A stretch of 64,000 bases of DNA. It comes from Ostreococcus lucimarinus (lineage: Eukaryota). This document shows, in pieces, positions 1,254-56,072 of this stretch. Position numbers and translations under genes: made by a program. The stretch lies in assembly GCA_000092065.1 (NCBI GenBank), contig CP000596.1, one strand, 5' to 3'. The notes beneath the pieces were generated by a model. The model had not been told where the DNA came from and made no database searches. It saw nothing but the letters and a program-made list of their open reading frames with translations. The number at the start of each line of letters is the position of its first letter. Position 1 is the first letter of the stretch.

Positions 1254-4200
1254 TCAGATGACGGAGCTGTAGCCGTCGACTTGGCGTGACGTCGTCGCGA
1301 CGAGCGACGTACGTTCGGACATTTCGGCGTCGGCTGGACGCGCGCGCGCGCGGAACGCGAACGCGAACAGCGCGACGCACAGCGTGAACGCGAAGGGAGT
1401 GTAAAAAATTGCGACCTTTTGACTGCCGTCGATGTCATCTTGAGGGCTCGATGATGCGAGAGATGATTTTTGTCGTGGAGAAGATCCCGACGACCCTAGT
1501 TGTGGCGTTTCGGCGGTGCTCGCGCCGACGCGCACAGGTGCGACGAATTCAAACTCAGCCGCTGGGTTGCCTGCGACGTCGGTCACTTCCGTAACAGTCA
1601 CTTTGTGATAGCCTTGTGAAAAGTATGGAAACTTCATCAACCAGTGACCACCAGCGCCATCGTTAACGCATTGAAGGACGTACTGTCTCAAGTCTTCGTT
1701 GGAAACGGCTTCGAAGGGACCCGTCGACGAGTTGCCTCGCTTGGCCGTGATCACTTGCTTCGTGCAATCAATGTCTTCCATGAAATCGACGCGTTGCGTT
1801 ACCTGTGAGCTCACATATTTGAAATCACCGACGAGCGGGTCCTTCGTATCTATCTTCACCATGAGATTTTGATCGCTCACAAATTCGTGCACTGACGGCT
1901 TTGCGAGGTGAGATCCGCCCACGCACATTGTTTTCAATCGGATATCATATTTCCCATCTTTATATCCACTCAGAAGTTTGTTGTAAGGGTCGTTTAGATC
2001 CCAGTCAAAGATGCAACCGTCTCCACCCCGCGACTCCGGGCAAAGTAAATTGAAATTCTTATTCGTGCCGGCACCGCGCTCGGCGTCTTTCGCTGTGATC
2101 CATTCGCCTCCTGATACCGAACGATATTGCACGTAGACGTAGGCGAGATTCCCATTCGTCACCAACGCTTCGGACGTGGATGCAGTTTCCTTGGGCCAGA
2201 GAGAATATCTATTCGGATTTACGACCGAGATGCTCAAAACGCTCGAATCAGACGCTGCGCTCTTCTCAAAGTAACTTGCTTCCTTGCTGAGCGTAGACGA
2301 GTGAAAAGCAACTTGAGGGCAATCTTTACTCCACGACATGGCACCGAGTGTAACACTGCTCGAGATGATCGGGCGATACATGTATTCTTCAATCATCGAC
2401 TCACACAAGCTCACCAAGGAAATCCCCAGGTACGAGCTTTCATACACTCCGTCGCTTGGCTCCACGCTCAGAAGCACGCGACTCTCGCGCACAACGCTTT
2501 GCGAATCCATACGCTCTCCAGCCAATCTTCGTAGAGGTAGGACTTCACCGAATGACCACATTTGAATACCATTGATCGAGAACTTCATTCCCTGTAGGAG
2601 TGTTCCTTGTGCTGTAGTGGTTTGCGTGAGACGAGCGATTGCGTTTGCCAACAATCTCCCTGCTCTGACGCTCATTGACTGTTCGTATGACGCTACGATG
2701 TCTTCAATCCGCGCCTTCAGGTCTTGAATGTCATCAGACTCTGACGCAAAGCATTCGTGGCTATCCGCCATGGCGTATGCTGCATTCTTTACGAACGTTG
2801 CGTTGTCCTCGTTCAACTGTGCCGCGTTATGAGCAGCCGCGATGATTTTTCCAACGCAGTCGGCGACTCCATCTACCAAACGAAGGCCCATGTTGGCCAC
2901 TTCCTTGTAGGGCGACTCATTGCTGATGAGAAGTTGGATCAAAGCGTGCTCTCCTGGGTTCAGATTCGTGTTATGCGTCGACTCCTTACCTATGGTAACG
3001 CCAGCTTCTCGGAACATCGTCCATTTTTCTCCCGGACATTGACTTCTGCCGCCCATCGTGATGAACACTGGAGATCCGAAACGTTTGTCGGAACTGACCT
3101 GGAGCACAAACTTATCCCCAAAATCTGGGTCACCTAATGAGTACATCGTGCTCATGTGTTCATACTTTGCCCAGGCAAAGGCACGACTTTTTGAAACTGA
3201 CTTGCTCATATCCGTGGTAGCACCTACATGCCCCTTGACGATGGCGATTGAACCCGCGAAGGAGTATCCGTTTTCAGCTGAGCCGTCCAGGCTGAGCGTC
3301 CATGCGTAATCTTGACCGTCGACGTTTTCGTTGGAAGAAAATATGTACTCTGTCGAAGCACCACCGCCGCTAAACGATAGTAAAATTGCTTCATCAGCGG
3401 GTCCATTCGAATCTGTGGTGGAGTAGCCGCGGGGACCCATACGCCCTGTAAACGACGCATCGACTCGTTTCGTATCGTTCATGTAAATGGATGCATCCTC
3501 TCCGAGCGTAAGATCGCTAAGATCGCTCGATTGAAGTAGTTGTGACGACACGTCTAGAGCCTGCGTTTTGCATTTTTCTGTGATGCAGGATGAAACCGTG
3601 TTGTTCAGATCTTCACGAGTGGGGCTATTCATCCCCATTGTCGTGACGAGCTCATCCGCTTCTTGAAATTGCTCGAGGAACTTCGGCTTCATCCTTTCAC
3701 TCTTTCGTGACCAGAAAACCTTGCCGACGTCTGGGGTGGCGTCGTTATCGTCGTCGTCACCGCGGAACCCAAGGTTTCCACTCAACAAGTCTGAAAATAA
3801 AGTCCCGGGATTGCTAACGTAGCCACTGATGAGCTGGGACAATCGAGATTCATCCGTCTCATCCGAGAGAATGAAGTCGTTAAGTGTGTCTATAGTACCA
3901 TCCGCGTCGCCCAAGTCCCCTGGAACGCCATGTATGTATGGACTAACTCTGTCGATTCTCTTCCAAGCAAGCTTCAACTCGTCTATTGGGGTAGAAATCG
4001 GACCGCTCGCGTCACTTATGAACGATGTTTCCATTTTCTCGGCTTCCATACCGAACGCGGATTGTTCATCCATAAAAGGAACCATGATGCGCTCCATTGC
4101 GCCGTAGTTTTTACCGTACAACACGGGAGCGCCTTCCGCAGTCGGCTCCATAGGAACCTTGTACACTGTTGGCGAAGCCCACAAAAGTGTGCGTTGCCAC

Positions 4201-7200
4201 ACGTTAATTTTGTCAGCGATGTACTGTGGCCAATTAGGCGCTTCCATTTTAGAATCATCCCCGACGATGAGGCCGCTTTCCACGACGGAAAGCAAATACC
4301 GCAAGTTTGGAATCACTTTCGCTTCAATCGAGTGTACCGTGAATATGTAGGACGTGGGTTTCCTCGGCATCCATGTGATCGCCGTCGATATCCGCAAGCA
4401 CGGTTTATCGTCTTCCCTTAGCGCAAGATCGAGCGTATCGGCTAGCCTGTAGACAAGTTCAACGCCGCCACCTAGAATCGCATCGCCCTGTCGTCCCGGG
4501 ATGGCGACGTCGGTACTTGTCCGTATGACACGATTTATCGTAGCCGTGAGATCCCAACCGACGGCGGAACTCTGAGCGACCGAAAATTCTGGTCCAGACT
4601 CCTCATGGTATGCGTCAAAATCTATCTTAAAGAGAGGCATTCCGAGCTGGAATAAAACCTCCATGCCATACCCAGCGCCGAACCCAGGTTTCGCCTCCAC
4701 TTCGAGTTCTACGCCGCCACCGCCTTCGTGTGAACTCGACACAGACGCCGCTTGTTCGTCTGAAAGCTCCACGGACATGGTCACTTCCGTGCCCATAAGA
4801 AGTTCGGCGTAAGAGTTGCCACCGGGCGGATCATGTACCGTCATGTACACCAAACCTTCGAGTGGAACAGTTGCCCAATACACGTCATCGCTTTCTTCGC
4901 CGTAGATCCCTTCGCCTCGCGGTTTCGAGCCAAGAGAGATGAGCTCTCGTTTCAACGGAACTGTCACTGTCATCGAACCATCAAATCTACCCACAGTCAG
5001 TTCGACAGATCTGCGGTAATTTCCTGAGAGCTTAGGATCTCCCGCGACAATGAGTCGATCCGTCGTCTTCTCGCCCTCATCCGTGGGGAATAAAAGTTTG
5101 TCGCTCTCCGGATCGATCTCAACGTCAAAGTCGCACAATGGTCCTCCATTGCGATCGGTATGACATGGATTTTCGGCTATATCGGTGACGCTTTGTCTGA
5201 ACATGGCCACCGTCATCCCGCCGCTCTCGGCGCTAGGCAGTGTCAAGCATTCATCGAGTGAACCATTCTCCACATGCAGTTCAAGTACTTTGGCGCTCAC
5301 AAGTTTCGGCCCCAAAGCGTAGAGCCCTTCTCCACCGAAATCATCAAAAAATGGCGATATCCCAACAAAGTGGTTGTGTCTAATGCCACCAGCTTTCACG
5401 CCATCAACGTCCCAGCAGTAATCGCCATCGTCGGTGATTACAGAAAGATCTACGAACTCTGCGCACAAATAACCGTGGTACTTGTATCTCGCCGAATACC
5501 AAGTGTGCTCAGTGCGTAATGGTACAAGCCTTTCGATCGTTGTTGGATGCTGGCGGAAGTATGGAATGATGCCGTCTACTCCGACATGACACAACGCGTT
5601 CGGATATTTCTCCTCGCGCATCGCCGTGAAATTCGCTGTGGATGGGGCCTCTTCGATCACTACCGAGTAATCCATCGCGGCGAGTGGCCACCGTCTTCCA
5701 TTCGGAACTTCTTGATATGTTGGTATAACGTCTGAGTTTTCCTTGTCGCGGTCAGGTAGAGTCCAGCCGGATACTTGAGCCGAAGTGAAGATGGCTGGTG
5801 GGTGACAGCCATTGATGGGGGTAATTTTGAAAGTCGCCCCTGTGTAAAGCTTTTCACACTCACCTTGATAGACACCCAAATCGACGTTTGCCGTCGTCGT
5901 GTCTGAGAAGAAAATGTACTTTTTCGATGATACGGCGTGGAGAGTAACTGTGGTCGGTTTACCGTCGCAGCTCCAAATTCTCGTAGCTTCCACGATGGTG
6001 GTTCCCGAATAGCAGATTTCGTGACCGGGATATTCCGCGGTTATCGTGTAGGTTTTCCCGTTTGTGACTGCGAATTCGAACCAGCCAGTCTCGTCTGTAG
6101 TGAATTGTCGCGGCGCACCAGCCTCGCTTTCATCTTTGACATAAATGCTTGCCTCAAAAAGTCCACACTCGGACAACTCGGTCCATTCTATTGGGAACAT
6201 GACGGCACCCAAAATGACCACTGTCGTATCGTCCTGCATTTTCTGCTCTACCTGATGATTATGGGTCAGCTCCAGGTTGATGACATCAATATCAGCCGTA
6301 TCCGAAAATACGGTATCACTTTCATATAGGTCACCATCGTCATCCGAAGTTCCAGCTTGCTTGACGACGTCATTGTTGTTGAATACATGCACGATTTCTG
6401 GCAGCTGCTGCGTGCTCCACAGCGCGACATCCAATCCAGGACGAGTGACGCGCGCGAACAGCGTCTGCGGATCATCTTGAACCACGTCGTGCAGTAGTGC
6501 GGCATCTAAGTCAACGAAAATCTTATTCGAGCCGGGAGATGTAGCAAGTAACGGTGTTGCATACACGGAGGTCTCATCGCCGACGACAATGGCATCGAAC
6601 TCGGCGTCTTCGAGAGGGCGACAGTGATCGATTTTTGACACAACATCACCCCCACTCTCTGCGCTGAGCTCATCATACCACTCGTTCCATCCCTCGGAAG
6701 AGTACGGAACGTGGGCTGATGTCGATCTTCGAACGATGAAATTTTCGCACGCTTTGCCAAACACTTGGCTACGCGCATCCTGGTGAGACTCGTCGGCGAT
6801 CGCAGCGCTAACACTCTGCACGGTGAACAAATCGAAGTCGTATGTAATTTTCCGCGGAGGGAATACGAGCACTGGCTCGACAAACAATGTCCGTTGAGCC
6901 AGACGATGCGCCACACTGAGGAATTCTTGTGCGTTCAGAAGTCCATCACCGTCCATATCCAACGACGAATTCCAAAGTTCTTCTGAAATTATCGCGTACC
7001 CATTGCTTGGAAAACTCGCACCTTTCTCGATGATGGCGGTCAACTCTGACTTATCGATGCCCCCGCTTCCATCTGTGTCTGTCTCGTCAAAATCGTGCAT
7101 CGGTGGTGGAGGCGATGGCGGTGGTGGCGATGGCGGCGGCGGCGATGGCGGCGGCGGCGATGGCGGCGGCGGCGACGGCGGCGGTGGCGACGGTGGCGGC

Positions 7201-10200
7201 GGCGGCGATGGCGGCGGCGGCGACGGCGGCGGCGGTGACGGTGGCGGCGACGGCGGCGGCGGCGATGGCGGCGGTGGTGATGCGATGCGCTCGACCCAGT
7301 GAACGTTTGTGAGAGAACCGGCCTTGACAGAGATATCCGCATGCAGCGGGTACTCGGGAGTCTGTTGACTGGTGTAAAAGCGAATTTCATTCTTGAAGTA
7401 CTCCACGGCTCCGGCGTCGTTGATGACGATTTGCAGCGAGTCGGACGAAGAGTAAGTCCCAGCCATCGTATACTCACGCTTGCCTTTCTCGTACACCTTG
7501 ATCTGTTTGGTATGCGTACAAAAAATCGCAAAATCAAGACTTTGATAATTCGTCGAATCCGTCGTCGACTGAGAGTTCAAACCGATCATCCTGTTGTTGT
7601 ATCCTCCGGCACAGACTGCGGAGATGCCACGCACAGAGTCAGAACCATTTCGAATAGCGCGCTGACTCACCGCACCGGCGTCCCAAGCGCCAGTCACTGC
7701 AGCCGTGCGCGTGACTTGGCCGCTTTCTGTGGATTCGACGCCGACTTGCGATACCCACGCGACATGATCGTCCGCCACCGCCTTTCCTGGCGGCGGCGGC
7801 GGCGGTGACGGTGGCGGCGGCGACGGCGGCGGCGGTGACGGTGGCGGCGGCGACGGCGGCGGCGGCGGCGACGGCGGTGGTGACGCGATGCGCTCGACCC
7901 AGTGAACGTTTGTGAGAGAACCGGCCTTGACAGAGATATCCGCATGCAGCGGGTACTCGGGAGTCTGTTGACTGGTGTAAAAGCGAATTTTATTCTTGAA
8001 GTACTCCACGGCTCCGGCGTCGTTGATGACGATTTGCAGCGAGTCGGACGAAGAGTAAGTCCCAGCCATCGTATACTTACGCTTGCCTTTCTCGTACACC
8101 TTGATCCGTTTGGTATACGTACAAAAAATCGCAAAATCAAGACTTTGATAATTCGTCGAATCCGTCGTCGACTGAGAGTTCAAACCGATCATCCTGTTGT
8201 TGTATCCTCCGGCACAGACTGCGGAGATGCCACGCACAGAGTCAGAACCATTTCGAATAGCGCGCTGACTCACCGCACCGGCGTCCCAAGCGCCAGTCAC
8301 TGCAGCCGTGCGCGTGACTTGGCCACTTTCTGTGGATTCGACGCCGACTTGCGATACCCACGCGACGCTACCAAGTATCTCGCCCGCCACCGCCTTTCCT
8401 GGCGGCGGCGGCGGCGGCGACGGCGACGGCGGCGGCGGTGACGGTGGCGGCGACGGCGGCGGCGGCGATGGCGGTGGTGGTGACGCCATGCGCTCGACCC
8501 ATTTAACATCGCTGAAGGAACCACGCATAATAAAAGCAACATCCGCGTGCAGCGGGTACTCGGGAGTCTGTTGACTGGTGTAAAAGCGAATTTCATTCTT
8601 GAAGTACTCCACGGCTCCGGCGTCGTTGATGACGACTTGCAGTGTATCGCTGTCCGTATACGCCACTGCAGCACCCTTAATTTTTTTACCACCTTCGTAC
8701 ACTTCAACTGCATCGGAGTGAAAATTGCATCTGATGCTGAAGTCCATTCGACTGGACACGGTCTCTGCCGCGGACTGCCGATTCAAGCCGATGAACTTGA
8801 GGCCGGACTCAGACCCACAACGAGCCGAGATTCCGCGCACTGAGTCCGTCAGGCCGTGGATCGACCGACGACTCACCGCACCGGCTGCGGAAAAATAATT
8901 CCACCAATTTGGAGATCGCCGCCAAACTTTTCGATTCGACGCTTTGGCTCTGCGAAGCGTCACCCAGACCACGTTGCCAACCGCCGCTTTTTCAGGCGGC
9001 GGCGGCGGCGGTGGCGACGGCGGCGGTGGCGACGGCGGCGGTGGTATGTACTGCGCAATGTTCCCCAGGAGGCGGCGCCCCCAGCGCTGCCTACCCAAGA
9101 GTGACGTCGTGGTTTCAGGAGATGACGAATCATCTTCCTTTAAGACCAATAAGACTTTACTGGGTACGTTCAGCGGGTCTGTCACGTCCGACGTTTGCAA
9201 GATGGGCTGCGTCGTCTTTTCAAAAACTTCCACTTTGTACGCCCCGATGTCAACGTGAGTTTTGATTGGCGTCATACCCGTGGAGTCTGTGATATGAACA
9301 ACAAACGATCCTTCCGAATCAGTGACCGCGCTGAAAGGGCATCGCGTCTCACCACCCAATACTCTTATTTCAGTCAAATTGACGTCTCGAACCGCCACGA
9401 CTGATACAAACTGCCCGTGCATCGCCTGCACAGTGTCGCCCCCGCCCCCCCCGCATGTAAACGTCAAACAGTCTGCGAATTCATCACTGACATCAGACGG
9501 ATCGTGGTTACATGCATATCCATAATTAGTCGTGTCTTCGGGATCGATTTCATGCACGTGCACTTTCATCGGTAAACTAAGCGTCGGACTCGCCTGTTGC
9601 CGAAATTCAAATCCCGTTACTTCAACTTTGCTCGATTCCGCACCAAACGAAATCTCGGGGAAAGTTATGTATTGATCTTGAGATGATATGAGGGTGGCGT
9701 TGAAACGTCTCCACGATTCCTCATGTATGGTGAATGATTCCGTACTGGCGTCAGTGGCGGATGTTCCGCGCAAGTCGATTGACACCGCGCGTTCACCACC
9801 CAAAGACTTCGCCCAAAACGACACCACGACAGAATCTCCAGTCAGGGCGCGCAAAGACTCGCCAGGAACGTGCACCGTGACTGAAACGCCTGCGTCCACC
9901 GATTTTACAACGTCCTCGAAACCAGGTGGAGGCGCAGTTGGGCTCGCGGTTAAAGGACTGATGGCGCTTGTCTGAACAAGCTCGAGGCGTTCGGTGAGAG
10001 TATTAAGAGTGAAATGAGCTCCGGTGAAGTAGAACGTACTTTCCGACCAAGCTGATACAGTAAATCCGACGAAAGCGGCGTCCTCTAACGTGTGCTTAAG
10101 CCTTATTTTCCTCCATTTATTCGGTTCAGCTGTAATGACGAGCGCGTCACCAACGGTCTGACGGCCTGCTGCTGTAGTTTGTTGTTCATACCCTAAAATC

Positions 10201-13162
10201 TGGAAAGTCATAATCGCCTCCTTCCCGACGGCGCGTACCCAGCATTCCAACAACACTGTATCACCAGCTTCGGCGTCTAGTCGATCAGTATTTTTCGCCC
10301 AGAGTTTCTCGTCTGCTCGCACGAGTCGGATGACATCATTCTCGTAACGAGGTGGATCAACGATCACGTCTGGATCATCGCCTGTATCGCCAGAATACCC
10401 CAGTCGGTCGGTGAGAGAACCCTCGGCAAGTTGGCGTGCCTTGATCGATTGCGGCTGTAGACATACTTGAACACTGCCTATTGACATCCAAAGACCAAGA
10501 TCGACGCGCGCGTAGCCACCCGTCGATACGACGACAGATTCACCGGTAGGTATGTGATTCCCATCGGTGAGCGTGTACGCTTGTTCATTCAAAGGGTTTG
10601 AGTATGCGTGCTTGAAAAGTGCGACATTGCTGGAAGATGATTCGACGTCGTCGCTCGGCCGTAAAGTTATCGTCGAATTCTCATTTTCATCCGCGTCTGG
10701 AGGCCTGGACCCTCGGTAATTTGCGACCTCCCCATCTATTACGATCGGGTCGTGAAAATTAGCGCATATTCGGACGTCGGGTACTGGAACAGCGGAATCA
10801 CCGGCGTACACGTAACCACCTACCTCTCCGTGCCAGGGCGTGATGAATTTGAAAGGGACAGAGTTTATACTTCCACCGGATGATGTTTTCGTCACCACCT
10901 TATACTTCCAAATCTGTCCTGGGATTGCCGCCGCCTCTCTGTCGGCGAAAAGCAACGGCGCGTACGATCGATGACAGTACGTGAGGCCACTGTCAATCAT
11001 CACCACTGACTCATAAGGTGCATCCGTCAGAGAATCCTGCATGCTTTGACGAAGAATCTCGAACCCAACGTCATTCCAGGCGGTATCACGGAAGCTGAAA
11101 GTGACTCCTACTGGATCCAGTTTTCCGTTGACGTCAATAGTAGAACCATCGTAGTACAATCCACCTCCACATTCAAACTTTGAGTAAGTTTCCTCGCGAG
11201 CGTCCGAAATGACGCCACTTAAACACACAATTCTTCGAGCTTTTGGTGCGGATGATTGACGAAGCACGCAGCGCTTGTAATGTCCACATCTTACGGTATC
11301 AATGAACATCACTTCGCGTATCACTCCGGTATACACTCGAACGTCGTCGAATTCAAAATCCACCGCGCCAAGCAGTGTAACGTCCGTCATTGACTCGAGC
11401 GCGCTCAGCGGCCAAGTTTCATCGCGCGTGTAAGTCGTATCATCGATTACTGTGGCCTTTGCGTCACTCGTTGGATCTACGTACAATGTCATGAAATTCA
11501 CCGAGTTTACGGCGAACGCGATGAGGTGCCACTCCCCGTCGCACGCAAAATCAAGTTTCACATCCTTTGAGGATGTGAAAGCGCTCGGAGGATCCACAGA
11601 CTCCTTGACCTGATGAGATGCCCGCAGTTCGACCATGCCGTCGCTCGTACGTATCTTGAGGTATACGTGGAGTCTGTGATCGTGAAGTCCCAACTGTCCT
11701 TGAAACTGAGCGACCGTCATGAGTGATTCGTCGTTGGAGGATTTGGGTTGCGAGCAACGACTTGGATCGATGCGCACCCATGTGCTCATCGCGATGTCGT
11801 GCCCAAGCGTATCTTCTTTATCAAGAGAGTATGAATAATCGTTCGTCCCAGGATCATCCACTGCTTGAAGGCAGCGAAATCCGTTGCCCCCCGAACATCC
11901 CGATATTGTGCGAGCGGATTTCGGCTGCAATCTCATCGGGACGGAAGACTGTCCGTCGACGATTGGCGCGACCGAATCAAGCGATCCGTCGTGTAAAGGG
12001 TCTTCATCAAACGTAAATGCTGCCACGAGAGAAGCGTGTTCGTCGAGAAAGTCACTCGTTGCTGGGCGAATGTCCGTGAAGGAGATGGGAAGTTGAAGCG
12101 TCGTGCCGCCGACTTCATACTCTTCAAAGCGCACATCGACGACGTCGTCGACTGTACCGTCGGCAACGTTGATCTGATTGAAGAGTATACCATCCACGTA
12201 TGCGCAGACGTAATCGCCGTTCGTTGGCTTAGGACTGTACGACCATGCAGTGGTGAGCCCGTTGAGGCCACTCACACAGCGATTCTCCGTTTGCCAGTCG
12301 AGAGTCGGATAGGTGATGCTATCGATACTGAAACTGTTCGACGGAGCTCCGCTGCACTTGACGGGTCGAACGGGGATTTCCATCACGTCGACAATAGACA
12401 CTGCCAGATCTGTGTCGTGCGCGGCGCGAAATTGGTCATTCCAAACGTTGAGAATGTACCTCGAAACGCTTTGTTCCACCAACATGGCCTGAAGTTCATT
12501 CAGTCGCAGCAGTCCGTCGCTGGGATCGACGTCGTGCCTACGAAAGATGCTTTCCTTTGTCTTGTAAATTTCGCCATCATCGCACAGCACGTTGTTGAAT
12601 TGATCGTTACTCAGCAATATGTACCGGACCAGTTCTTCAAGCCCCGAATTCTGATTCGCGCTCGCTTGGCCGGCGGCGTTGAATCCGAGAGGCAGGTGCA
12701 AATCGCAACCCTTGATAACTTCGAAAGAGTGTTGACCAACGGTTTCCGAACCTGGAACGATGCCATCGACCGTAACAAAGTGACAGTTATAAGTTATGGT
12801 GTGAGATCCAACCGAGTGCGTCCCATCCAACTCTGTGAGCGCGAGCGCCTTCGGGAAAAAATCATTCCATTTGCGACACGGTAAGTTATCCGCGTAATCC
12901 GACTCGGAACACGACTGATCGTCTCGTTTCACGCGAACATCGCATCGGAGACCAAGCGCGTGATTGCTCACGCTCTCTTCATTCACATTCAGTAAACAAT
13001 CGCTCGCTTCAGCGCACGCGGGATGATGCACCGCGACTTGGAAATCGTACGAGTACGCCGCAACCCTCTCCGTGGTGGAACCAAATCTCACTTCAATCGC
13101 AGCACCGGCACCAGGCGGCGGCGGTGGACTCGGCGGCGGCGGGCTCGGCGGCGGGCTCGGCG

Positions 13163-13202
<40 letters not shown>

Positions 13203-13569
13203 CGGACTCGGCGGCGGCGGCGGGCTCGGCGGCGGCGAACAATTCGCTATACCCTCGCAATTCTCCGTTCGTGTTTGTCCCTCATACGCTCCACAACTTC
13301 GTCCACCGTTTCGCGGCTTGACGGTGATCGTGAACGTCTGCGAGTACGTCGCCGGTCCGCAAAAAGCCGTGCAACTCCCTTGCCAAAAGCCTACACAATC
13401 CGTTTTCGGCGGCGACGGCGACGACCCCCCGTGGACCCCTCGCAGCGACGACAGCGCGCTCGCGACGACCAACCCGCGCATCATCGTTCGCGTCGCGTCC
13501 CATCGACGTCCGGCGCCATCGCGCGTCGTCGACCGCGACGGCGCGCGTCGTTCGCGAAGCTGACGCGGC

Positions 13570-13571
<2 letters not shown>
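1254..13571 (-). CDS. Giant (about 4,080-4,105 aa) single-exon cell-surface protein with a C-terminal TM anchor. N to C: signal peptide, TSP1-like Cys motif, extensin-like (S)PPPP spacers, LamG/concanavalin-like region, three tandem ~190-aa repeats, EF-hand/dockerin-like Ca-binding pair, ~2,500-aa C-terminal ectodomain. Function unknown.
   Basis: The ORF is uninterrupted for 12,318 nt on the minus strand. The probable true start is the ATG ATG at 13479-13484, giving MMRGLVVASALSSLRGVHG, which looks like a signal peptide. The TSP1-like motif is CVGFWQGSCTAFCGP...RNGGRSCGAYEG...NCEG. SPPPPSPPPP runs are encoded by GGCGGCGGCGGCGAY tracts. The LamG-like signature is FACDGEWHLIAFAVNSVNFMTLYVDPT. 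The Ca-binding loops are DTDGSGGIDKSE and DMDGDGLLNAQE. The C-terminal TM helix is VAIFYTPFAFTLCVALFAFAF, followed by a short tail. Confidence 0.8.
7040..9060 (-). repeat. In-frame tandem array of a roughly 600-bp unit (two near-identical 603-bp copies plus one or two diverged copies) inside the giant gene. Each unit encodes a ~160-aa domain plus a PPPS spacer.
   Basis: The string cgctcgacccagtgaacgtttgtgagagaaccggccttgacagagatatccgcatgcagcgggtactcgggagtctg occurs at 7291 and again at 7894, a period of 603 bp (201 codons). A diverged copy begins at 8494. The duplicated spurious ORFs in the track (MILRFFVRIPN..., MNVCERTGLD...) reflect the same repeat. Confidence 0.85.
13113..13240 (-). repeat. 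Coding G-rich 12-15-nt periodic microsatellite (GGCGGCGGCGGGCTC-like) encoding the (S)PPPP extensin-like spacer. Similar tracts lie at about 7100-7290, 7790-7890, 8395-8490 and 8990-9045.
   Basis: The periodicity is visible directly in the sequence. Read on the minus strand it gives SPPPPSPPPPPSPPPP. Confidence 0.7.
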
Positions 13572-13602
<31 letters not shown>

Positions 13603-13770
13603 GTCGTCCGTCCTCGCGCGCGGCCCTCGCGCGGGCGCCGCGTCGTCGCGCGTCGGGGGTTTCGGTTCGCTCCGCGTTCGTCGCGCTCGCGTCGCGCGAT
13701 GCCGTCGCGCGCGCGACGAACGCGCGCCGCGACGTTTGGGGGAGGTGTTGCGTCTTTTCAAAAAAAAACG

Positions 13771-13803
13771 AGGGTGTTACAAGGGTGTTACGAGGGTGTT
13801 GCG
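13771..13803. promoter_or_regulatory. Three tandem 11-bp repeats, AGGGTGTT(A/G)C(A/G), about 200-300 bp upstream of the giant-gene start. A degenerate fourth copy lies at 13743-13752, next to an A9 run.
   Basis: The sequence reads agggtgttac a agggtgttac g agggtgttgc. The 11-bp period is about one helical turn. It sits in the 5' flank of the minus-strand giant gene. Confidence 0.35.
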
Positions 13804-14218
13804 CGCGGGGCGTTACAAAATAAACGTCTAGGCTAGTTGGAGGACGCGAGGTCGAACGGATTGTTTTCTTCGGGATTCAATCGAATTCTTCGGAATTCTT
13901 GGAGATGCGAGCTCCGCAGCGGACCTCGCGCCCTACGCCTTCGCCCGATTTCGGCGAACGAACGAACGATCGCTCGCCTTCCGGCGGCGGCGCCGACAGC
14001 CCCTCGGGACTGGCGACCACCCACCTGGGAGGAGGGAAATCCCTGACCGCGATGCGCACCATCTCGAATGCGCGCACTCGGGATGATCCACGGACCCGCG
14101 CGCGCGCATCCGAACGATGCGGTAGGGAGTTTCTTTCGACCGACGCTTTTTTTTGTTTGACTTCCGTCGCCCCCGAAGGCGCGTCGACCGCTTCCATCGT
14201 AAAATTCGCGCGCGTCCG

Positions 14219-14764
14219 CTACATCTCGCCGCACTCCGCGATCACGCACGGCAGCTTGGGCTTATTCCCGCCCCCCGTCGCCACGTTCTCCACCTTTCTA
14301 ATCACCAACATCCCGTCTCCCAGCACGCGTCCGAACACCACGTGCTTATCGTCCAACCACTCCGTCTTCGCGCACGTCACGAAGAACTGGCACCCGTTCG
14401 TGTCCGGCCCGCTGTTCGCGCTCGACAGCAACCCCGCACCCGTGTGCCTGCCGACGAACGCCTCGTCGTCGAACTTCGATCCGTATATCGACGCGCACCC
14501 CGTGCCGTCGCCGTTGACGAAGTCCCCGCCCTGAATCATGAAATCCTTGATCACGCGATGAAACGCGCACCCCTTGTACCCTCGCGGCGCGCCCTCGCGC
14601 GAGCGAAACTCCCCCGCGCACATCTGCCTGAAGTTTTCGCACGTCTTCGGCGCGACGTCGGCGAAGAGCTCGAACGTCACCCGCCCCGCGCTCGCGCCGC
14701 CGATCGTCACGTCGAAGAAAACCACCGGATTCGAGTCGACGCGCGCGCGATCGTGCCACGACAT
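14219..14764 (-). CDS. Cyclophilin-type peptidyl-prolyl cis-trans isomerase (181 aa, cytosolic type)
   Basis: The protein reads [33 protein letters not shown]...[14 protein letters not shown]...[24 protein letters not shown]. It starts at a real ATG (cat at 14762-14764). Confidence 0.9.
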
Positions 14765-14919
14765 CCTCGGCGACGACGCGCGGCGTCGCCCGCGACGCGC
14801 GCGCGCGGTCCCGGTCGCGCCTCGCGACGCGACGCGGCGATGAGTGTGGACGATTCCTCACATCACAGCGCGCGACGTCGACCGCGTCGACGCTCGGACC
14901 CTCGCGAGACCTTCTCTTT

Positions 14920-14941
14920 ATGGCCGACGACTTAGTGTTCG
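14920..14941 (+). CDS. SUI1: eIF1/SUI1 exon 1 (22-nt micro-exon encoding MADDLVF plus the first base of the next codon). The intron spans 14942-15363 (422 nt; GTGCGT donor, GAGACTGACGAG branch site at 15323-15334, CAG acceptor).
   Basis: The SUI1 homology region (…NDPFANEA…YIHIRVQQRNGRK) has no in-frame Met before an upstream stop at 15297. The only GTGCGT in the 5' flank follows ATG GCC GAC GAC TTA GTG TTC G. Splicing to CC AAC GAT... gives MADDLVFANDPFANEA..., which matches the eIF1 N-terminus (MSDLD..AFDPFADA). Confidence 0.55.
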
Positions 14942-15363
14942 GTGCGTCGACGCCACGCGCGCGGCGCGTCGCGATCGCGTCGCGGCGCGCGCGCGGCGAC
15001 GCGATCGCGACGCGCGATCGCGACCTCGAATCGCGAACGATTCTTTCGGCGTCGCGCGGTTCGCGGCGCGCGCGCGCGCGAAGGGCGCGCGCGCGCGCGC
15101 GATGGACGCGCGATCGTCGCGCGCGACGGCGAGCGGCGCGAGCGGGGACGACGCGACGCGCGCGGGACGGGAAAACGGGACGATGGAGGGATCGCGCGGC
15201 GCGAGGGCGCGCGAGACGACGAGGCGCGCGGGAAGCGCGCGGATCTCGGACGAGACGCGCGAGGGATGACGAGGGATGACGAGGGATGGGGCGCGATGAC
15301 GACGACGACGACGACGCGAACGAGAGACTGACGAGAGGCGCGCGACGAATCCGCGAGACGCAG

Positions 15364-15713
15364 CCAACGATCCCTTTGCTAACGAAGCGCTTGACTTTGG
15401 AGACGAAGAAAAGCCAAAAAAGGAAAAGAAGGAAACCGCGGACTCGGTTCAGGAGAACTACATTCACATTCGCGTGCAACAGCGTAACGGACGTAAGAGC
15501 TTGACGACGGTGCAAGGACTCAACCCGAAGATCAACAAGAAATTGGTGCTCAAGGATCTCAAGAAGAAGTTCAACTGCAACGGATGCATCGTTGAGGATC
15601 CCGATCACGGAGACATCGTTCAGCTTCAAGGAGACCAGCGTAAGCAAATCGCGACGTTCCTTCTCGAGGCGAAGATTTCTAAAAAGGCGTTGATCAAGGT
15701 GCACGGGAGTTAA
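15364..15713 (+). CDS. SUI1: eIF1/SUI1 translation initiation factor, exon 2
   Basis: The protein reads YIHIRVQQRNGRKSLTTVQGLNPKINKKLVLKDLKKKFNCNGCIVEDPDHGDIVQLQGDQRKQIATFLLEAKISKKALIKVHGS, ending at TAA 15711-15713. Confidence 0.85.
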
Positions 15714-16035
15714 AATCTCACGCGCGTGATTTCACGACGGACGCGACGAGACGTCCAAAATTTTACTTACACGTTACACGACGCAAACGCGCGACTGGGA
15801 GACGGCGACCGCCGAAAGACAGACACGTTGAGGGGGGGTAGATTTTTTACCCGCGGCGCTCGCGCCGCCGGTGTACTTCTTGTAGCTTTCTCTTAGCGTT
15901 GTCAGATACGAAATGATACGAATTGCGTGACTTTCGTTTACCAGCCAAACTTCGTCAAGGGCGCGCTCTCGCGAGACGTCGAGTTTAAAAGTTCAATCTC
16001 ACACTACACACACCGCTCGTTCGATTCGTTCGCCG

Positions 16036-16827
16036 CTATTCTTCCTCATCCGGCGACGCGGCCTCGTCTTCGGTCGCCGCCTCCGCCGCGTCGTCGCCGC
16101 GTCGTTTCGTCCCCCACGAGCGCGCCTTTTCGTTCCTCGCCTTCGCCGCGGCCCTGCGCTCGTTCGCGCCCCCCCCGACCGGCCCGCTCACGACGACGTT
16201 CTTATAATTCTCCCCGCTCGACGTCATTTTCAGAATTTTAAATCCGCACAGCTCTCCGACCACGGGCGCGTCCACCTTCCCCCCCCCCGCCGCCGCTCGC
16301 TCCGCCGTCGTCGGCGGCGCTCGACCTCGATACGCTCTCGCCGGCAAAAACGCAATCATTCCCGCGATCCCCACCGCGTACCCCCCGTTCACCGCGTTCA
16401 ATATCCTCCCTTTCACCGTCGCACCCGCGTCGCGCGCTCGCACGAGCTCCCTCCACACCCGCTCCAGCGACCGCCGTCTCGCCAGCCCCTTCACCTCCAG
16501 GTCGAGCGCGCCCGCGGGATTATTCATCCACGTCACCCTCGCCTCCACGACGTCCCCGACCCGCGGCGTCGCGTCCAGCTCGCTCAACTTGTACGTCACC
16601 GCGCCCCGGATCCCCGTCAGCGCGCTCGCGACGCCGTTCCGCGCGTCGACGGCGACTATTCTCGTCGCGATGACTTTGCCCTGCACGCACGGCATCAGCG
16701 CGTTGTGCGCCGCGTCGTCGCGCGTCGGCGTCGAGTGCGGCGCCGTGGCGTCGCGCGTCGTCGTCGTCGTCGTCGCCGCGCCGCGCCGTCCCGCGAGACG
16801 CGCGAGCGCGACGCCGCGTCGAATCAT
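16036..16827 (-). CDS. Small S1-type RNA-binding-domain protein with a probable organellar transit peptide (MIRRGVALARLAGRRGAATTTTT...)
   Basis: S1-like segments are GKVIATRIVAVDARNGVASALTGIRGAVTYKLSEL...VGDVVEARV and ATVKGRILNAVNGGYAVGIAGMIAFLPARAY, followed by an acidic/basic tail. The start is a real ATG at 16825-16827. An alternative internal start lies at 16693-16695. The rest of the 627-aa track ORF upstream is Arg-rich and was rejected. Confidence 0.5.
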   Translation of the reverse strand: MIRRGVALARLAGRRGAATTTTTTRDATAPHSTPTRDDAAHNALMPCVQGKVIATRIVAVDARNGVASALTGIRGAVTYKLSELDATPRVGDVVEARVTWMNNPAGALDLEVKGLARRRSLERVWRELVRARDAGATVKGRILNAVNGGYAVGIAGMIAFLPARAYRGRAPPTTAERAAAGGGKVDAPVVGELCGFKILKMTSSGENYKNVVVSGPVGGGANERRAAAKARNEKARSWGTKRRGDDAAEAATEDEAASPDEEE

Positions 16828-16905
16828 CGTCGCGACGATCGGGACGCGCGTCGATCTGCGGCGCCGCACACGCGCGCGCGGGAGACGCGCGGCGCGGCGA
16901 CGACG

Positions 16906-18279
16906 ATGCGCGCGGCGACGCGCGCGACCGCGGCGCGCGTCGCCGCGACGCGCGCGCGCGCGCGACGCGCGAGGGCGACGACGATTCGCGACGACGATTC
17001 GACGCGGCGTCGTCGCCGCGCGTCTCGCGCCGAGGCGCGGCGCGGCGACGACGACGACGGCGCGAGCGGCGCGAGGGAGACGGCGCCCCGCGCGTCGGCG
17101 CAGGCGCGGGCGTCGGCGATGGACGCGGTGTGGGCGCGCGCGCACCCGAAGTACCTGCAGTCGGACGCGCTCGACGACGCGTTTTGCGACGAGATCGAGC
17201 GCGCGGACGACGTCGCGCGACGGCGGGACGCGGCGAAGATCGGGGCGTCGTCGCGGGAGGGCGGCGCGGGCGCGGCGGGCGACGAGGGGGCGGACGAGGC
17301 GGTGGATTACATTTGGACGGCGATTCGAGAGGAGGCGAGGCGAGACGCGGCGAGGGAGCCGATGCTGTCGAGCTCCCTGTACGCGAGCGTGCTCAGTCAC
17401 GACACGCTGGAGCAGAGCTTGAGCTTCGTGTTGGCGAATAAGTTGGCGGACAGCACGCTGCTGCCGACGCAGCTGATGGAGATTTTTAACACGGTGCTGA
17501 CGGAGGAGGAGGAGACGGCGGCGGGCGCGGAGCTGCGCGAGGCGGTGAGGGCGGACGTCGCGGCGTTCAAGGAACGAGATCCGGCGTGCGTGGGGTACTC
17601 GCACGCGTTGTTGTTGTTCAAGGGGTTTCACGCGCTGGAGTCGCATCGCATTCAGCACGCGCTGTGGAACCGCGGGCAGAGACTCATGGCGTTGGCGATG
17701 CAGAGTCGAATCTCCGCCGTGTTCTCGATGGACATTCATCCGGCGGCGCGGTTGGGGAAAGGGATCTTGATCGATCACGGCACGGGTGTGGTGATCGGTG
17801 AGACGTGCGTGATCGGAGACTCGGTGAGCATCTTGCAAGGCGTCACTCTGGGGGGCACCGGGAAGGCGGTCGGCGACCGTCATCCCAAAATCGAGTCGCA
17901 CGTCTTGATCGGCGCGCACAGCACCGTGCTCGGGAACATCAAAGTCGAGCGCGGATCGATGATCAGTGCGGGGAGCTTAGTGTTGAAGCCCGTCGCGGCG
18001 CACACCATGGTCGCTGGCTCGCCCGCGAAGGTCGTGGGTAAGGTTCGCGACAGCAAACCGTCGCTCGTCATGGACCATCACATCACGCCCATGGCGCCGA
18101 CGTTTTGCGACGACTTGGAAGAGGCGGTGCGTCGACAAGTGAGCGAGGAGAAAGAGAAGTGGACTCGCACGGCCGAAGATGAGGATCGAGTGCGCTCGCA
18201 AGTGATTTCCGCGGACGAGAAGAGGCGGCGAAGACGCGATCGAGGCAGTAGAAGCGGCGGCGATTCGTCGACGCGATGA
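16906..18279 (+). CDS. Serine O-acetyltransferase (SAT/SERAT; left-handed beta-helix hexapeptide acyltransferase) with an R/A/T-rich presequence and a roughly 110-aa C-terminal extension
   Basis: The core reads IHPAARLGKGILIDHGTGVVIGETCVIGDSVSILQGVTLGGTGKAVGDRHPKIESHVLIGAHSTVLGNIKVERGSMISAGSLVLKPV. The in-frame ATG at 16906 gives MRAATRATAARVAA..., and an alternative start (MDAVWARAHPKY) lies at 17119. The track ORF nominally begins at 16705 with GTG, which would overlap the divergent S1 gene. Confidence 0.8.
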   Translation: MRAATRATAARVAATRARARRARATTIRDDDSTRRRRRASRAEARRGDDDDGASGARETAPRASAQARASAMDAVWARAHPKYLQSDALDDAFCDEIERADDVARRRDAAKIGASSREGGAGAAGDEGADEAVDYIWTAIREEARRDAAREPMLSSSLYASVLSHDTLEQSLSFVLANKLADSTLLPTQLMEIFNTVLTEEEETAAGAELREAVRADVAAFKERDPACVGYSHALLLFKGFHALESHRIQHALWNRGQRLMALAMQSRISAVFSMDIHPAARLGKGILIDHGTGVVIGETCVIGDSVSILQGVTLGGTGKAVGDRHPKIESHVLIGAHSTVLGNIKVERGSMISAGSLVLKPVAAHTMVAGSPAKVVGKVRDSKPSLVMDHHITPMAPTFCDDLEEAVRRQVSEEKEKWTRTAEDEDRVRSQVISADEKRRRRRDRGSRSGGDSSTR

Positions 18280-18358
18280 TCGAGTTGTAACAAATGAACA
18301 GTAAATGAATTCACAGCTGCGTTCGCGCACGCCAATCGGACCGACTAAAGAATGTGTG

Positions 18359-19315
18359 TTAATCGAACGGGTCGATGCGAGGATCGTGCTCGGTCGCGAG
18401 CGCCATCCCGGTGCACAAGCACGACGTGCACATAACCTTCGCCGTGCCGCTGCACGTCGGACAAATACATCTCGTGTTCGACGTCGGATCGATCAATCGC
18501 CCCGGGCGGTTGCTCGTCGAGCACTCCGCGCACTGTAAGTACCCACTCCCCTTGCAATACATGCAAATCTTCTTGCGCTGCTCTTTGACGTTTTGAATTT
18601 CGATGACGAAGAAGGCGGAAATCGCCCCCACGGCGCCGCCCGTGAACGAAGCCACGATCGGATCAACCTGCGCGAGCTGCGCGGGCAAGTGCACGCTATC
18701 TATGAACTCCGCGTACGACGTCCCGCCGAGCCCGAGTTTCACTTCCGCCATGGGTGCGATCAACCCTCCGAAGAGGAGCAAAAATCCCACCGCCGCGCCC
18801 CAATAAATCCGATAATCCTTCACGCTATCCTCCGTCAACACCGGGAATCCCGGGATCACGGACTCGAACTCCCGCGTCTCCTTCACCTCATCGTCGTCCA
18901 ACCCGATCGTCTTCACGCGCTGCTGCACCCGCAACCGTCGCAACTCCTCCATCAACAAAAACAATCGCTGTCGGCGACTCTCGATGTTCTGCGCGATCTC
19001 CCCCGCCTGCATGTCCGCGAAATCCACCACACTGTTCCGCCCCTCGATGATGCAATAATTCTCCGGCAACGCTTGCGAATCAAAATCTCGCGCCTCGCCC
19101 TCCGCGTCGTCCTCCTCCGCGTCGTCGTTCGCCGCCGTCGTCGCCGCGCCCTCGCCTTCGCCCTCGCCGATCGCTCTGCGCGTCCCTCCCGCGCGCGTTC
19201 GCGCCCATTCCGCGCGCGCCGTCCGCGACGCTTTCGCGCGCATCCGCACTCGCGCGTTCACCGCCCCCGTTCGCGCGCGCATCGCGCATCGCGTCGTCGG
19301 CGTCGTCGCGCGCAT
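18359..19315 (-). CDS. OR: ORANGE (OR) protein: plastid DnaJ-like Cys-rich zinc-finger membrane protein, the phytoene-synthase holdase
   Basis: Near-identity to plant OR over the conserved core: CIIEGR..VDFA.M...I..NI.SRR...FLLMEE.RRLR.QQR; GLGGTSYAEFI; QVDPIVASFTGGAVGAISA; CMYCKGSGYLQC; KVMCTSCLCTGMALATEHDPRIDPFD. There are two TM helices and CxxCxGxG motifs. Confidence 0.9.
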   Translation of the reverse strand: MRATTPTTRCAMRARTGAVNARVRMRAKASRTARAEWARTRAGGTRRAIGEGEGEGAATTAANDDAEEDDAEGEARDFDSQALPENYCIIEGRNSVVDFADMQAGEIAQNIESRRQRLFLLMEELRRLRVQQRVKTIGLDDDEVKETREFESVIPGFPVLTEDSVKDYRIYWGAAVGFLLLFGGLIAPMAEVKLGLGGTSYAEFIDSVHLPAQLAQVDPIVASFTGGAVGAISAFFVIEIQNVKEQRKKICMYCKGSGYLQCAECSTSNRPGRLIDPTSNTRCICPTCSGTAKVMCTSCLCTGMALATEHDPRIDPFD

Positions 19316-55300: not shown

Positions 55301-56072
55301 CGCCCTTACGCACGTCTTTGAGCTCGCGCTCAACGGCGTCGACGTAAGCGCTCGATCGACCACTGACGACTCGCCAGAGAGGTCGCTCGATGATGTTTAA
55401 TAAGTGATGGTTCACCCAAAATCGTACGAGCGTGCGCACTGGGAACGCCATCGCGTCGTCGTCGCTGCAGCTCCAAATCGCCGCACACATCGGCACCACG
55501 TACGACTCTTGAAAGAACGCCGAGTACTTGCGAGCTTTGAGGTACTCACCCAAAGAGACGTCCGCGAACTCGCTCGCGCGTTCCGGCGCCAAAACCTCTG
55601 GCGCCTCGCGACCAAAACGTAGAATCTCCCGAATCATATTCAAAAACCGTCCGCTCATCGCGTTCGACTTTTGCGCGAACACGCCTTTCAGTCCTATGCT
55701 CCCCCACTCGACGTCTCCCGTGGACAATGAAAACGACATGTCGCTCGGTTCGCTCTCGACGCCGAGCTCGCCGAACAGGCCCACCAGGTGCGGGTACGTC
55801 GTCAGGTTGAACACCTGGAAGCCCAAATCCACGTCGCACTTCGCCGTGCTCGAGTATTGCGTCAGTGCGTGTCCACCGAGCTTCGTCGACGCTTCGAACA
55901 GCGTCACCGCGCCGCACGAGGGCGTCGAGGGCGCGCTTTGCGCTTTTACACTTTTTGGTCCGCCGCCGGCGTCGTCGGCGTTCTTTTGGAGTAAATACGC
56001 CGCCGACAGGCCGCTGACGCCGCCGCCGATGACGGCGACGCGTTTACCGCGTGTGGTGGCTTCGTCCTTCAT
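52389..56072 (-). CDS. CFAS: Tri-domain fusion of 1,227 aa: N-terminal FAD-dependent amine-oxidase-like domain, a cyclopropane-fatty-acyl-phospholipid synthase (CFAS, SAM methyltransferase) domain, and a C-terminal ~330-aa polytopic membrane domain
   Basis: The FAD Rossmann motif is KRVAVIGGGVSGLSAAYLL. The CFAS region reads NIEYHYDAGNEFYKLFLDDTMLYSSAIH…VLEIGCGWGTCAIRMASEKNCHVTGLTLSHEQ…FDKVVSIEMLEAVGHEHLPTFF…LKPGGRAAIQVIT. After it come six or seven hydrophobic helices (LAVVVAICAMFAQ…, MAVPLLVGVVAVFSCATFLAAVV, VVALAVTLLALHHDVFVVAIACSL, LAVVAFYVFQAIPTVYAIYAL…). Confidence 0.85.
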   Translation of the reverse strand: MKDEATTRGKRVAVIGGGVSGLSAAYLLQKNADDAGGGPKSVKAQSAPSTPSCGAVTLFEASTKLGGHALTQYSSTAKCDVDLGFQVFNLTTYPHLVGLFGELGVESEPSDMSFSLSTGDVEWGSIGLKGVFAQKSNAMSGRFLNMIREILRFGREAPEVLAPERASEFADVSLGEYLKARKYSAFFQESYVVPMCAAIWSCSDDDAMAFPVRTLVRFWVNHHLLNIIERPLWRVVSGRSSAYVDAVERELKDVRKGAYVTKVYRVAGGVSVTFKTEDAKGKVQESTEVFDDVVFACHSDQALQILGKAASEEEVSALSAVKYQENDVYLHTDETMMPRNKDAWASWNCLRGDRLGIPAEEAANRSVCVTYWVNLLQNLAPGTKDLFVTLNPPREPKAGSVEHKVTLAHPLFNKAAIAAQEEIKALQGKDRVWFCGAWCGYGFHEDGIKSAVDCVDKMLGKSSVPWMPRSCDPKLSMSTKMVLPLFQRACVGWLPADKRLRMILPDGSERLMMGKEANASSETITMTVFNQRLFMQTILRADIGLGECYMNGDFDVDLIGFMDMICKGHPAASGAETESCKPKMRLDPVGLLTEAVNWVGAQMEMAAHKALSNTKEGSRKNIEYHYDAGNEFYKLFLDDTMLYSSAIHGAIDDAAMSVDVLKKFKTFEAQEKHLEEAQYLKIDAMIARAGIKPGDRVLEIGCGWGTCAIRMASEKNCHVTGLTLSHEQHAEATARVKAAGLSHLIDIVICDYRDVQGTFDKVVSIEMLEAVGHEHLPTFFGTVHRVLKPGGRAAIQVITMPDGRYESYCNSESDFIRAYIFPGGHLPSVGAMKSASPRGLVLEGYDDIGLHYAVTLRLWRERMMHHAQRILSMGYSRKFLRMFEFYFAYCEAAFANKLIYDLQMTWVKKSDDASRSEVSTSSIAPEFQYLAVVVAICAMFAQRNPSTVTEMLPMAVPLLVGVVAVFSCATFLAAVVSSVALPQLGKKVSKVKLAEASSAHGTLMERSLALSVPLTKAVVAAAVGTAAYRFIDDTQNVRAAAISWILPNERKQAGKLAAVELLKVYVMVMVGRVVVDGARRERGEMFRRVVALAVTLLALHHDVFVVAIACSLITELRDATVHFRTFARTASGFPHYETVAYAASQRLAVVAFYVFQAIPTVYAIYALSAHIRAGTLPPKSPLGAIAIIATTASAIRAVRASVADAQLAVADRVIRRRILDVSTSAEI

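Follow-up and report, generated by a model that had tools for sequence, protein, structure and literature searches.

Among the green algae, giant surface proteins are known from Chlamydomonas, whose hydroxyproline-rich sexual agglutinins SAG1 and SAD1 carry Ser-Pro polyproline rods. Since Ostreococcus, the smallest free-living eukaryote, has no wall, scales or flagella, the prime candidates for a role in cell-cell recognition, in the attachment of viruses and in adhesion to particles are the few large proteins on its surface. Here we describe such a protein from a stretch of 64,000 nucleotides of Ostreococcus lucimarinus (contig CP000596.1; the whole stretch is called the window below). An earlier note, made from the letters of the window alone, had proposed a 12.3-kb single-exon gene for a giant mosaic type-I surface protein. 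We found that this 12.3-kb open reading frame (ORF) is one real gene of an Ostreococcus-type picoalga, and its predicted product is a membrane-anchored surface protein, which we consider to be, with somewhat better than even confidence, a type-I plasma-membrane-anchored, long-reach modular surface glycoprotein acting as a lectin-type adhesin or surface receptor.

The ORF occupies positions 1254..13571 on the minus strand, as do all features of the gene given below, and runs uninterrupted from ATG to stop over 4,105 codons plus the stop codon. A run of 4,105 stop-free codons cannot have arisen by chance at a G+C content (GC) of about 54%, and with 4,105 amino acids (aa) against 1,744 aa for the second-largest ORF it is by far the largest gene of the 64-kb window, as had been noticed before. 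An exact look-up of the 4,105-aa product in protein records gave no match; the DNA itself is present in public assemblies. A metagenome scaffold of the same species (L003) matches the whole gene at 99.8-99.9% DNA identity except for a gap of 100 N at its positions 9258-9357, which corresponds to about 7336-7667 of the window and lies within the tandem T repeats described below. Public gene calls of 1,948 aa exist because of this gap; as they start directly after it, we rejected them as the true gene. Since gene calls are shortened at the repeats, the protein family is under-represented in protein databases. Further assemblies contain ORFs of 3,735 and 3,569 aa, both of which reach the contig end. 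A metagenome contig that looks like a long-read assembly (L023, positions 7052-19298) carries a copy with 96.4% identity across the full 12.3 kb and with the same three tandem repeats as the window gene. This copy is broken by a few frameshifts into ORFs of 936, 401 and 2,547 aa; these are probably read errors, or the gene may be a pseudogene in that strain.

Regarding the ratio of non-synonymous to synonymous substitutions (dN/dS) against the L023 copy, the whole gene yielded 0.46, which indicates purifying selection. The N region gave 0.42 and the two conserved C-terminal blocks 0.31 and 0.36, with values of 0.78-0.80 in the T repeats and the variable insert (0.80 for the insert). The ratio is below 1 in each segment and the gene is therefore coding throughout, the exposed or variable segments being the fastest evolving. 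We regard it as extremely improbable that the ORF is an artefact, made up of a mis-assembled repeat or of several genes fused by chance: tandem repeats do break short-read scaffolds and one contig (L023) does contain frameshifts, but three kinds of independent assembly give the same layout, every segment is under purifying selection, and the N region and the C module are joined in distant relatives too. Repeat mis-assembly had been raised as a concern by the earlier note itself; the layout was recovered at 99.8% and 96.4% identity by two independent metagenome assemblies, and the single ORF, recovered in independent assemblies, bears out the description of one giant gene whose product is a mosaic type-I surface protein.

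The features of a type-I single-pass protein are all present, namely an N-terminal hydrophobic stretch, one C-terminal hydropathy peak and a short tail, and they predict the corresponding topology. A signal-peptide-like hydrophobic stretch, MMRGLVVASALSSLRGVHG, was read at residues 30-48 (13428..13484), preceded by an Arg-rich, hydrophilic segment (residues 1-29). Because the signal-like stretch begins at residue 30, Met30 is probably the translation start. Towards the other end, a Ser-rich juxtamembrane stalk (residues 4011-4052, 1416..1541, likewise read from the sequence) leads to a predicted transmembrane helix at about residues 4053-4073 (1353..1415; hydropathy peak 4053-4071), which is the sole hydropathy window above 1.8 in the protein and is found in nearly all complete homologues. 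The predicted cytoplasmic tail of about 34 aa (residues 4074-4105, 1257..1352) ends in GYSSVI. In 33 of 38 family members the protein terminates in Y-G-[AST]-[AST]-[VIL]-COOH, of which the YSSVI of the window protein is a variant, and beyond these last five residues the tails are not conserved (C-termini of P0001-P0022, P0061-P0088 and P0324). The pentapeptide looks like a sorting or PDZ-type binding motif, and its conservation would be expected if the cytoplasmic tail has its own function.

Above the membrane lies a predicted ectodomain, of which about 2,500 aa had been called unassignable. Most of this part is a conserved C module of about 1,900 aa, extending to about residue 4010, which has many homologues on picoalgal metagenome contigs and contains a core shared with surface proteins of Bacteroidota. 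The module begins with block B0 (residues 2230-2440, 6252..6884), conserved within the algal family only. Blocks B1-B2 (residues 2447-2879, 4935..6233) are Cys-rich beta-sandwiches, the first of them transthyretin, CarboxypepD_reg or CnaB-like. Core block B3 (residues 2880-3140, 4152..4934), with the motif WATVP..GLVY.VVHDPPGG.SYA, is shared with Bacteroidota proteins and is followed by a variable insert (residues 3141-3339, 3555..4151) that is helical or disordered and fast evolving, with an identity fraction of 0.15-0.23 and a predicted local distance difference test score (pLDDT) below 50. Blocks B4-B5 (residues 3340-3570, 2862..3554) carry the motif GDKFV..V..D.RFG(T/S)PVF.T.GGRS.CPGE, and the Cys-Pro-x-Glu of B5 is nearly invariant throughout the superfamily. 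Blocks B6-B7 (residues 3571-4010, 1542..2861) comprise a helical segment and then beta-rich membrane-proximal domains, which look Ig-like or Big_5-like and are putatively assigned as such; they gave a weak Big_13 match only (E 0.15), and in the bacterial relatives Big_5 domains come after the core. An AlphaFold model of the C module, built from 56 aligned sequences, reached a mean pLDDT of 74.4. In this model B3 consists of a sheet whose strands are 16-24 residues long and of two helices after it, and B5 includes a beta-hairpin with 35-residue strands and low-confidence tips.

A homologue search with residues 2231-4105, through which the long homologues were found, returned 25 cluster representatives. 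24 of them matched at E <= 6e-149 with 34-98% identity and are collinear along some 1,850 aa; each of these was obtained from a marine metagenome, on contigs carrying eukaryotic genes. The remaining representative is a weak Bacteroidia match (P0025, E 1.3e-8). Members of the algal family range in size from 1,800 to 4,140 aa and are located on picoalgal metagenome contigs. One relative of 58% identity has the same DnaJ gene immediately downstream as in the window and is therefore an orthologue. Relatives of 3,050-4,140 aa consist of N region, C module, transmembrane segment and tail, without T domains, and one complete member of 1,973 aa is made up of the C module alone. The C module with the transmembrane helix and the tail is a constant base, on which outer modules are swapped between lineages. 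The gene is the largest in its neighborhood and belongs to a family conserved across metagenome contigs of picoalgal gene content; in public gene calls it is cut at its repeats. A second lineage of giants was also noted (P0324 and P0313, 4,139 and 4,131 aa). Its members possess a ricin-B-like lectin close to the N-terminus (24.3 bits, cut-off 25.6) and a different insert of about 550 aa where the window protein has its T domains.

The modules of the protein are set apart by five tracts that contain S and P only, 184 residues in total, in agreement with the extensin-like (S)PPPP spacers described before. They are located at residues 112-154 (13110..13238), 1510-1527 (8991..9044), 1697-1725 (8397..8483), 1897-1929 (7785..7883) and 2098-2157 (7101..7280), the last being the longest with 60 aa. 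All have the Ser-Pro(3-5) repeats by which extensins and hydroxyproline-rich glycoproteins are recognized. Tyr cross-link motifs (YXY, VYK) were not found in any of the five tracts, which are free of Tyr, and extensin-type cross-linking is therefore impossible within them.

Regarding the outer modules, a box of six Cys residues (residues 58-111, 13239..13400) lies between the signal-like stretch and the first rod. It contains C-x3-CG and a single Trp, but the TSP1-like label it had received did not hold: Pfam TSP1_spondin matched with E 0.054 and 14.2 bits (cut-off 41), which is not significant, and there was no thrombospondin-repeat match among PDB sequences at E up to 10. The N region follows at residues 155-1509 (9045..13109), with conservation among the long homologues of 3,050-4,140 aa extending over its residues 160-1048 and 1335-1490. 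At about residues 515-755 (11307..12029) it includes a candidate concanavalin A-like or LamG-like jelly roll. Foldseek matched this segment to botulinum toxin Hc, calreticulin lectin domains and GH16 enzymes (E 4e-6, probability 1.0), and it is the only part of the N-region model to reach a pLDDT of 50-76; a segment-wise Pfam scan gave Laminin_G_2 on residues 635-707 with E 0.065 and 14.1 bits (cut-off 22.9). For the LamG/concanavalin-like region of the earlier note, the fold match in a low-confidence model and the sub-threshold Laminin_G_2 match together give weak support.

Three tandem domains of about 170 aa each, T1 (residues 1528-1696, 8484..8990), T2 (residues 1726-1896, 7884..8396) and T3 (residues 1930-2097, 7281..7784), alternate with the rods. 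T2 and T3 are 94% identical to each other and T1 is 56% identical to both, which agrees with the tandem internal domains seen in the letters alone. Beyond fragments from the same species, relatives of the T domains comprise only one fragment of 65% identity and one bacterial protein of 35% identity, and a T-domain profile showed no relationship to the N region. The T domains are an accessory that occurs almost only in this lineage. The bacterial relative (P0060, L024 2951-3487) has 178 aa and seems to bridge two successive T-like units, reaching from the last part of the first into the beginning of the second; it sits in a bacterial glycan-gene cluster of ABC-transporter, glycosyltransferase and methyltransferase genes.

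Between the last rod and the C module we found an EF-hand pair (residues 2160-2221, 6909..7094) with the loops DTDGSGGIDKSE and DMDGDGLLNAQE, both canonical. The Pfam models EF-hand_6, 1, 5 and 7 matched at E 1.6e-5 to 3.7e-4, 0.3 to 9 bits under their cut-offs (best-placed score 24.7 bits against 25), and EF-hand matches were recorded in homologues too. Two canonical loops and four near-threshold models speak for the Ca-binding pair that had been proposed. The attribute "dockerin-like" attached to it found no support, as the Pfam matches at E up to 1 include no dockerin family. With Pfam and NCBIfam over the whole protein only EF-hand and sub-threshold matches were obtained, and the scans by segment added only the weak Laminin_G_2.

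How such a protein may work can be outlined as follows. The C-terminal 1,900 residues would act as a membrane-proximal base made up of the EF-hand pair, the pilin-like beta-sandwiches, the long-strand B3-B5 core and the putative Ig-like domains, ending in one transmembrane helix and a short tail with the conserved five-residue motif; a sorting or scaffolding protein of the cytoplasm is the probable binding partner of this tail. The EF-hands are probably structural rather than sensory, because they would always be Ca-loaded in seawater. If they are hydroxylated and carry arabinose like the hydroxyproline-rich glycoproteins of plants and green algae, the Ser-Pro tracts would be stiff polyproline-II rods with a combined length of about 57 nm, which would keep the variable outer modules tens of nm, possibly about 100 nm, off a naked cell about 1 micrometre wide; the larger estimate adds some twenty globular domains to the 184 Ser-Pro residues (~57 nm). 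The outer modules, i.e. the three T domains, the concanavalin-like lectin region and the N-terminal Cys box, would serve to bind a ligand, either carbohydrate or protein, that is present on another cell, a particle or a virus. An adhesin or receptor of this kind is supported by the resemblance of B1-B2 to the stalk domains of Gram-positive pilins and adhesins, and the low dN/dS of the base (0.31-0.42) compared to about 0.8 in the T domains and the insert fits a conserved scaffold with fast-evolving exposed parts. Gamete recognition, virus attachment and particle or bacterial adhesion can be seen either as sub-cases of such an adhesin or as its rivals.

Several observations count against an adhesin or receptor. 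No lectin domain above a curated threshold was found in the window protein, and the N-region model, built from six sequences, has a mean pLDDT of just 34.7. Our searches assigned no fold to the T domains or to the B3-B5 core, and the core's long amphipathic hairpins in the model, together with weak matches to pore-forming proteins, allow another activity. Base composition has to be added to this list. The gene has a GC of 0.54 and a third-position GC (GC3) of 0.50-0.65, compared to a GC3 of 0.71-0.83 in its neighbors. Such a low GC3 may mean low or stage-specific expression, as would not be expected of the "main", constitutive surface component. The same dip (GC 0.52-0.54 in GC-rich flanks) was found for the homologous genes at three other loci (L001, L017, L018), and the low GC therefore belongs to the gene family and not to the chromosome region. 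A low-GC outlier region around the gene was considered and rejected, as its flanks are normal. Low or stage-specific expression could account for the low GC, or else a bacterial origin.

Rare expression would also be compatible with a special case of the adhesin, a gamete-recognition protein resembling the sexual agglutinins SAG1 and SAD1 and made only in a rare sexual stage. Giant size, Ser-Pro rods combined with globular domains, fast-evolving exposed parts and outer modules that vary between lineages would all suit such a protein. We nevertheless consider it improbable, because homology to SAG1 or SAD1 was not detected in the globular parts and the normal GC of the window flanks places the gene outside any low-GC region of the mating-type kind; moreover, sexual stages have reportedly not been observed in Ostreococcus (PMC8557840). 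The fast evolution of the outer parts likewise bears on a second possibility, that the protein serves as the attachment receptor of prasinoviruses or as a decoy for them, its outer modules changing in an arms race. By its estimated length it would be the most protruding protein of the naked cell, and both the dN/dS of about 0.8 in the T domains and the insert and the swapping of outer modules between lineages are in line with this. The scan of viral contigs for the algal motifs found no viral relatives or partners, however, and the literature, in the parts accessible to us, ties resistance to glycosyltransferase-rich outlier chromosomes and not to this locus, which makes a virus receptor or decoy quite unlikely. 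The preferred interpretation thus remains that of a long-reach lectin-type adhesin or surface receptor.

The relatives of the core extend far beyond the algae. When a profile built from residues 2440-3639 was run against 1.84 billion representative proteins, 1,055 of them matched with an E of up to 1e-3, among these 350 with E up to 1e-10; many of the matched proteins belong to Bacteroidota. While the complete set B0-B7 is limited to the algal group, the distant proteins have two blocks only, in the same order: B3 (residues 2880-3140, 'HDPPGG.SY') and B5 (residues 3440-3570, 'GDKFV..RFGTPVF.T.GGRS.CPGE'). Every checked distant protein of at least 900 aa contains both in this order, and the near-invariant residues of the superfamily are D-P-P-G and C-P-x-E. 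Many distant proteins have B3 and B5 joined in a compact unit of 350-390 aa, to which the algal proteins add a fast-evolving insert of about 300 aa; the variable insert is largely missing from most bacterial relatives. A CarboxypepD_reg-like domain is often located upstream of the core. Type-IX-secretion sorting domains (Por_Secre_tail or CHU_C) were present in 9-10 of 21 distant proteins, and many have LamG, BACON, Big_5, fn3 or C-type lectin domains. With their sorting and lectin-type accessory domains the distant relatives of the core are therefore bacterial surface proteins; one of them comes from an uncultured Bacteroidia genome (P0025). Pfam and NCBIfam scans found no type-IX sorting domain in the window protein, and no model of either database covers the B3-B5 core. 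No core relative was found among PDB sequences, either by single-protein search or with the profiles A1 and A5, and no relatives came from scanning viral contigs, bacterial genomes and archaeal genomes for the algal motifs.

The long strands of the modelled core suggest yet another function. In this interpretation B3-B5 would be a module that forms pores or inserts into membranes while tethered, in the manner of aerolysin or CEL-III. The protein, like its bacterial relatives, would attack or fuse with a target membrane (of a grazer, virus, competitor or gamete) after lectin binding. Apart from the modelled sheets of 16-35-residue strands with their low-confidence hairpin tips, the hairpins are rich in Ser and Thr and show polar/apolar alternation when the alignment is read by eye, but alternating residues are common in any two-faced beta-sheet. 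Foldseek repeatedly returned proteins of the aerolysin family (Dln1, lamprey LIP, LSL and the Salpingoeca lectin) at E 2e-3 to 3e-2, and a sub-threshold Pfam CEL_III_C match was found in 2 of 20 core-containing proteins, in P0163 between B3 and B5; all these matches are sub-significant, with Foldseek probabilities of 0.08-0.30 and 16 bits against a Pfam cut-off of 27, and profile searches of PDB sequences gave nothing. Thus, no significant sequence or fold match to aerolysin, ETX-MTX2 or CEL-III was obtained for the core; the hints are mutually consistent and none is significant. The layout of lectin plus core recalls haemolytic lectins, but in the anchored 4,105-aa protein the module adjoins the cell's own membrane, and no release site was identified. 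We therefore consider a pore-former highly unlikely. A broader proposal, that the core defines a structurally new extracellular superfamily of Mamiellophyceae giants and about 1,000 other proteins, many of them secreted by Bacteroidota, perhaps as a lectin-targeted membrane-inserting or oligomerising module, also seems improbable to us as a whole. In this context, an exchange of genes between picoalgae and marine bacteria is plausible. If the core did insert into membranes or oligomerise, the alga might use the protein as a tethered effector in gamete fusion, in its interaction with viruses or in defence, and not as a passive adhesin.

Regarding the genomic context, the genes surrounding the giant ORF are eukaryotic and of the green lineage, and encode among others a SufE-NadA fusion, listerin, an SNF2 ATPase, an NVL-type AAA ATPase, a GH16/KRE6-like protein and an M28 peptidase. 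Several neighboring proteins fall into 90%-identity clusters with O. lucimarinus CCE9901 XP_001422034.1 and XP_001422044.1. The host is therefore a naked picoalga of the O. lucimarinus type, in agreement with the wall-less-picoalga context that had been recognized from the letters. At the far end of the window there is a gene for a GT77 nucleotide-diphospho-sugar transferase (56243-57712, E 2.5e-38), adjoined by two weak Sulfotransfer_2 genes (57823-61157, E 1.4e-4 and 8.3e-4), and the three may form a small glycan-modification cluster. The GT77 family includes extensin arabinosyltransferases, and Ser-Pro tracts are classic arabinosylation sites.

From these enzymes, present at 56.2-61.2 kb, and from the Ser-Pro tracts one may construct a different function for the giant protein, a structural glycocalyx scaffold serving as their dedicated substrate, and the earlier note had suggested such a link. 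The enzyme genes are more than 42 kb away, however, separated from the giant gene by no fewer than 17 genes to which Pfam assigns unrelated functions, and at the syntenic orthologue locus only the DnaJ neighbor is retained, the GT77 and sulfotransferase-like genes lying outside the conserved synteny. Because of this distance, and because eukaryotic gene order is uninformative in this respect, their position is no evidence of a functional link. In addition, the Tyr-free tracts leave no room for cross-linking of the extensin type within them, and a "scale scaffold", as it had been called, does not match a genus without scales or wall. A dedicated scaffold is thus unlikely, although among the rival functions we would give it the most weight, and we retain the long-reach adhesin or receptor as the preferred interpretation.

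Three other observations were made on the neighborhood. Positions 52389-56072 of the minus strand encode a 1,227-aa fusion of a flavin amine-oxidase domain and a cyclopropane-fatty-acid-synthase-type methyltransferase. A 737-aa protein encoded at 29523-31736, also on the minus strand, combines GH16 and SKN1/KRE6-like beta-glucan synthesis domains, in a wall-less alga. In another species (L017, 5128-9031) a homologue of the giant protein with 3,254 aa adjoins both the DnaJ gene and a gene for an RWP-RK transcription factor, which is maybe a coincidence; RWP-RK factors include green-algal mating-type regulators.

Literature searches gave no description of the window protein, and no named reference protein or family model was found. 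It can be compared to several known systems. SAG1, SAD1 and the chimeric hydroxyproline-rich glycoproteins of green algae are alike in being giants of more than 3,000 aa at the algal surface that combine Ser-Pro rods with globular domains. SAG1 and SAD1 differ in having one long shaft, whereas the window protein has five short linkers, and in lacking a C-terminal transmembrane anchor; no homology was detected in their globular parts, and the glycosylation of the window protein is a prediction. The thrombospondin-repeat adhesins of the TRAP/MIC2 type are likewise type-I surface proteins with a short tail ending in a C-terminal motif, but in the window protein the thrombospondin repeat stays below the cut-off (14 versus 41 bits) and there is no von Willebrand A domain. 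Towards the pilins and MSCRAMM adhesins of Gram-positive bacteria (SpaA, BcpA, SdrD, TIE proteins) the likeness is one of fold only, at 10-14% identity, and the sandwich domains of the window protein are Cys-rich and probably disulfide-stabilised in comparison. Haemolytic lectins of the aerolysin family and CEL-III, to which Foldseek and Pfam hinted weakly, likewise would combine lectin domains with an elongated beta module of long strands. A giant modular surface glycoprotein with proline rods is a known kind of protein, whereas the constant module and its link to Bacteroidota have not been described previously. The type-IX cargo proteins of Bacteroidota (P0025, P0145, P0148, P0163) share with the window protein the DPPG block and the GTPVF.T.GG.S.CP.E block, often a CarboxypepD_reg-like domain upstream and Ig-like or Big_5 domains downstream, and they too are large modular proteins with lectin-type accessories. 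They differ in that they end in a sorting domain and not in a transmembrane helix, have in most cases a compact core without the algal insert of about 300 aa, and do not possess B0, B2, B4, B6, the EF-hand pair or the Ser-Pro rods, all of which are found in the window protein. The shared core ties the surface biology of picoalgae to a large unannotated family of proteins secreted by Bacteroidota, and a structure or phenotype obtained in either group would inform both.

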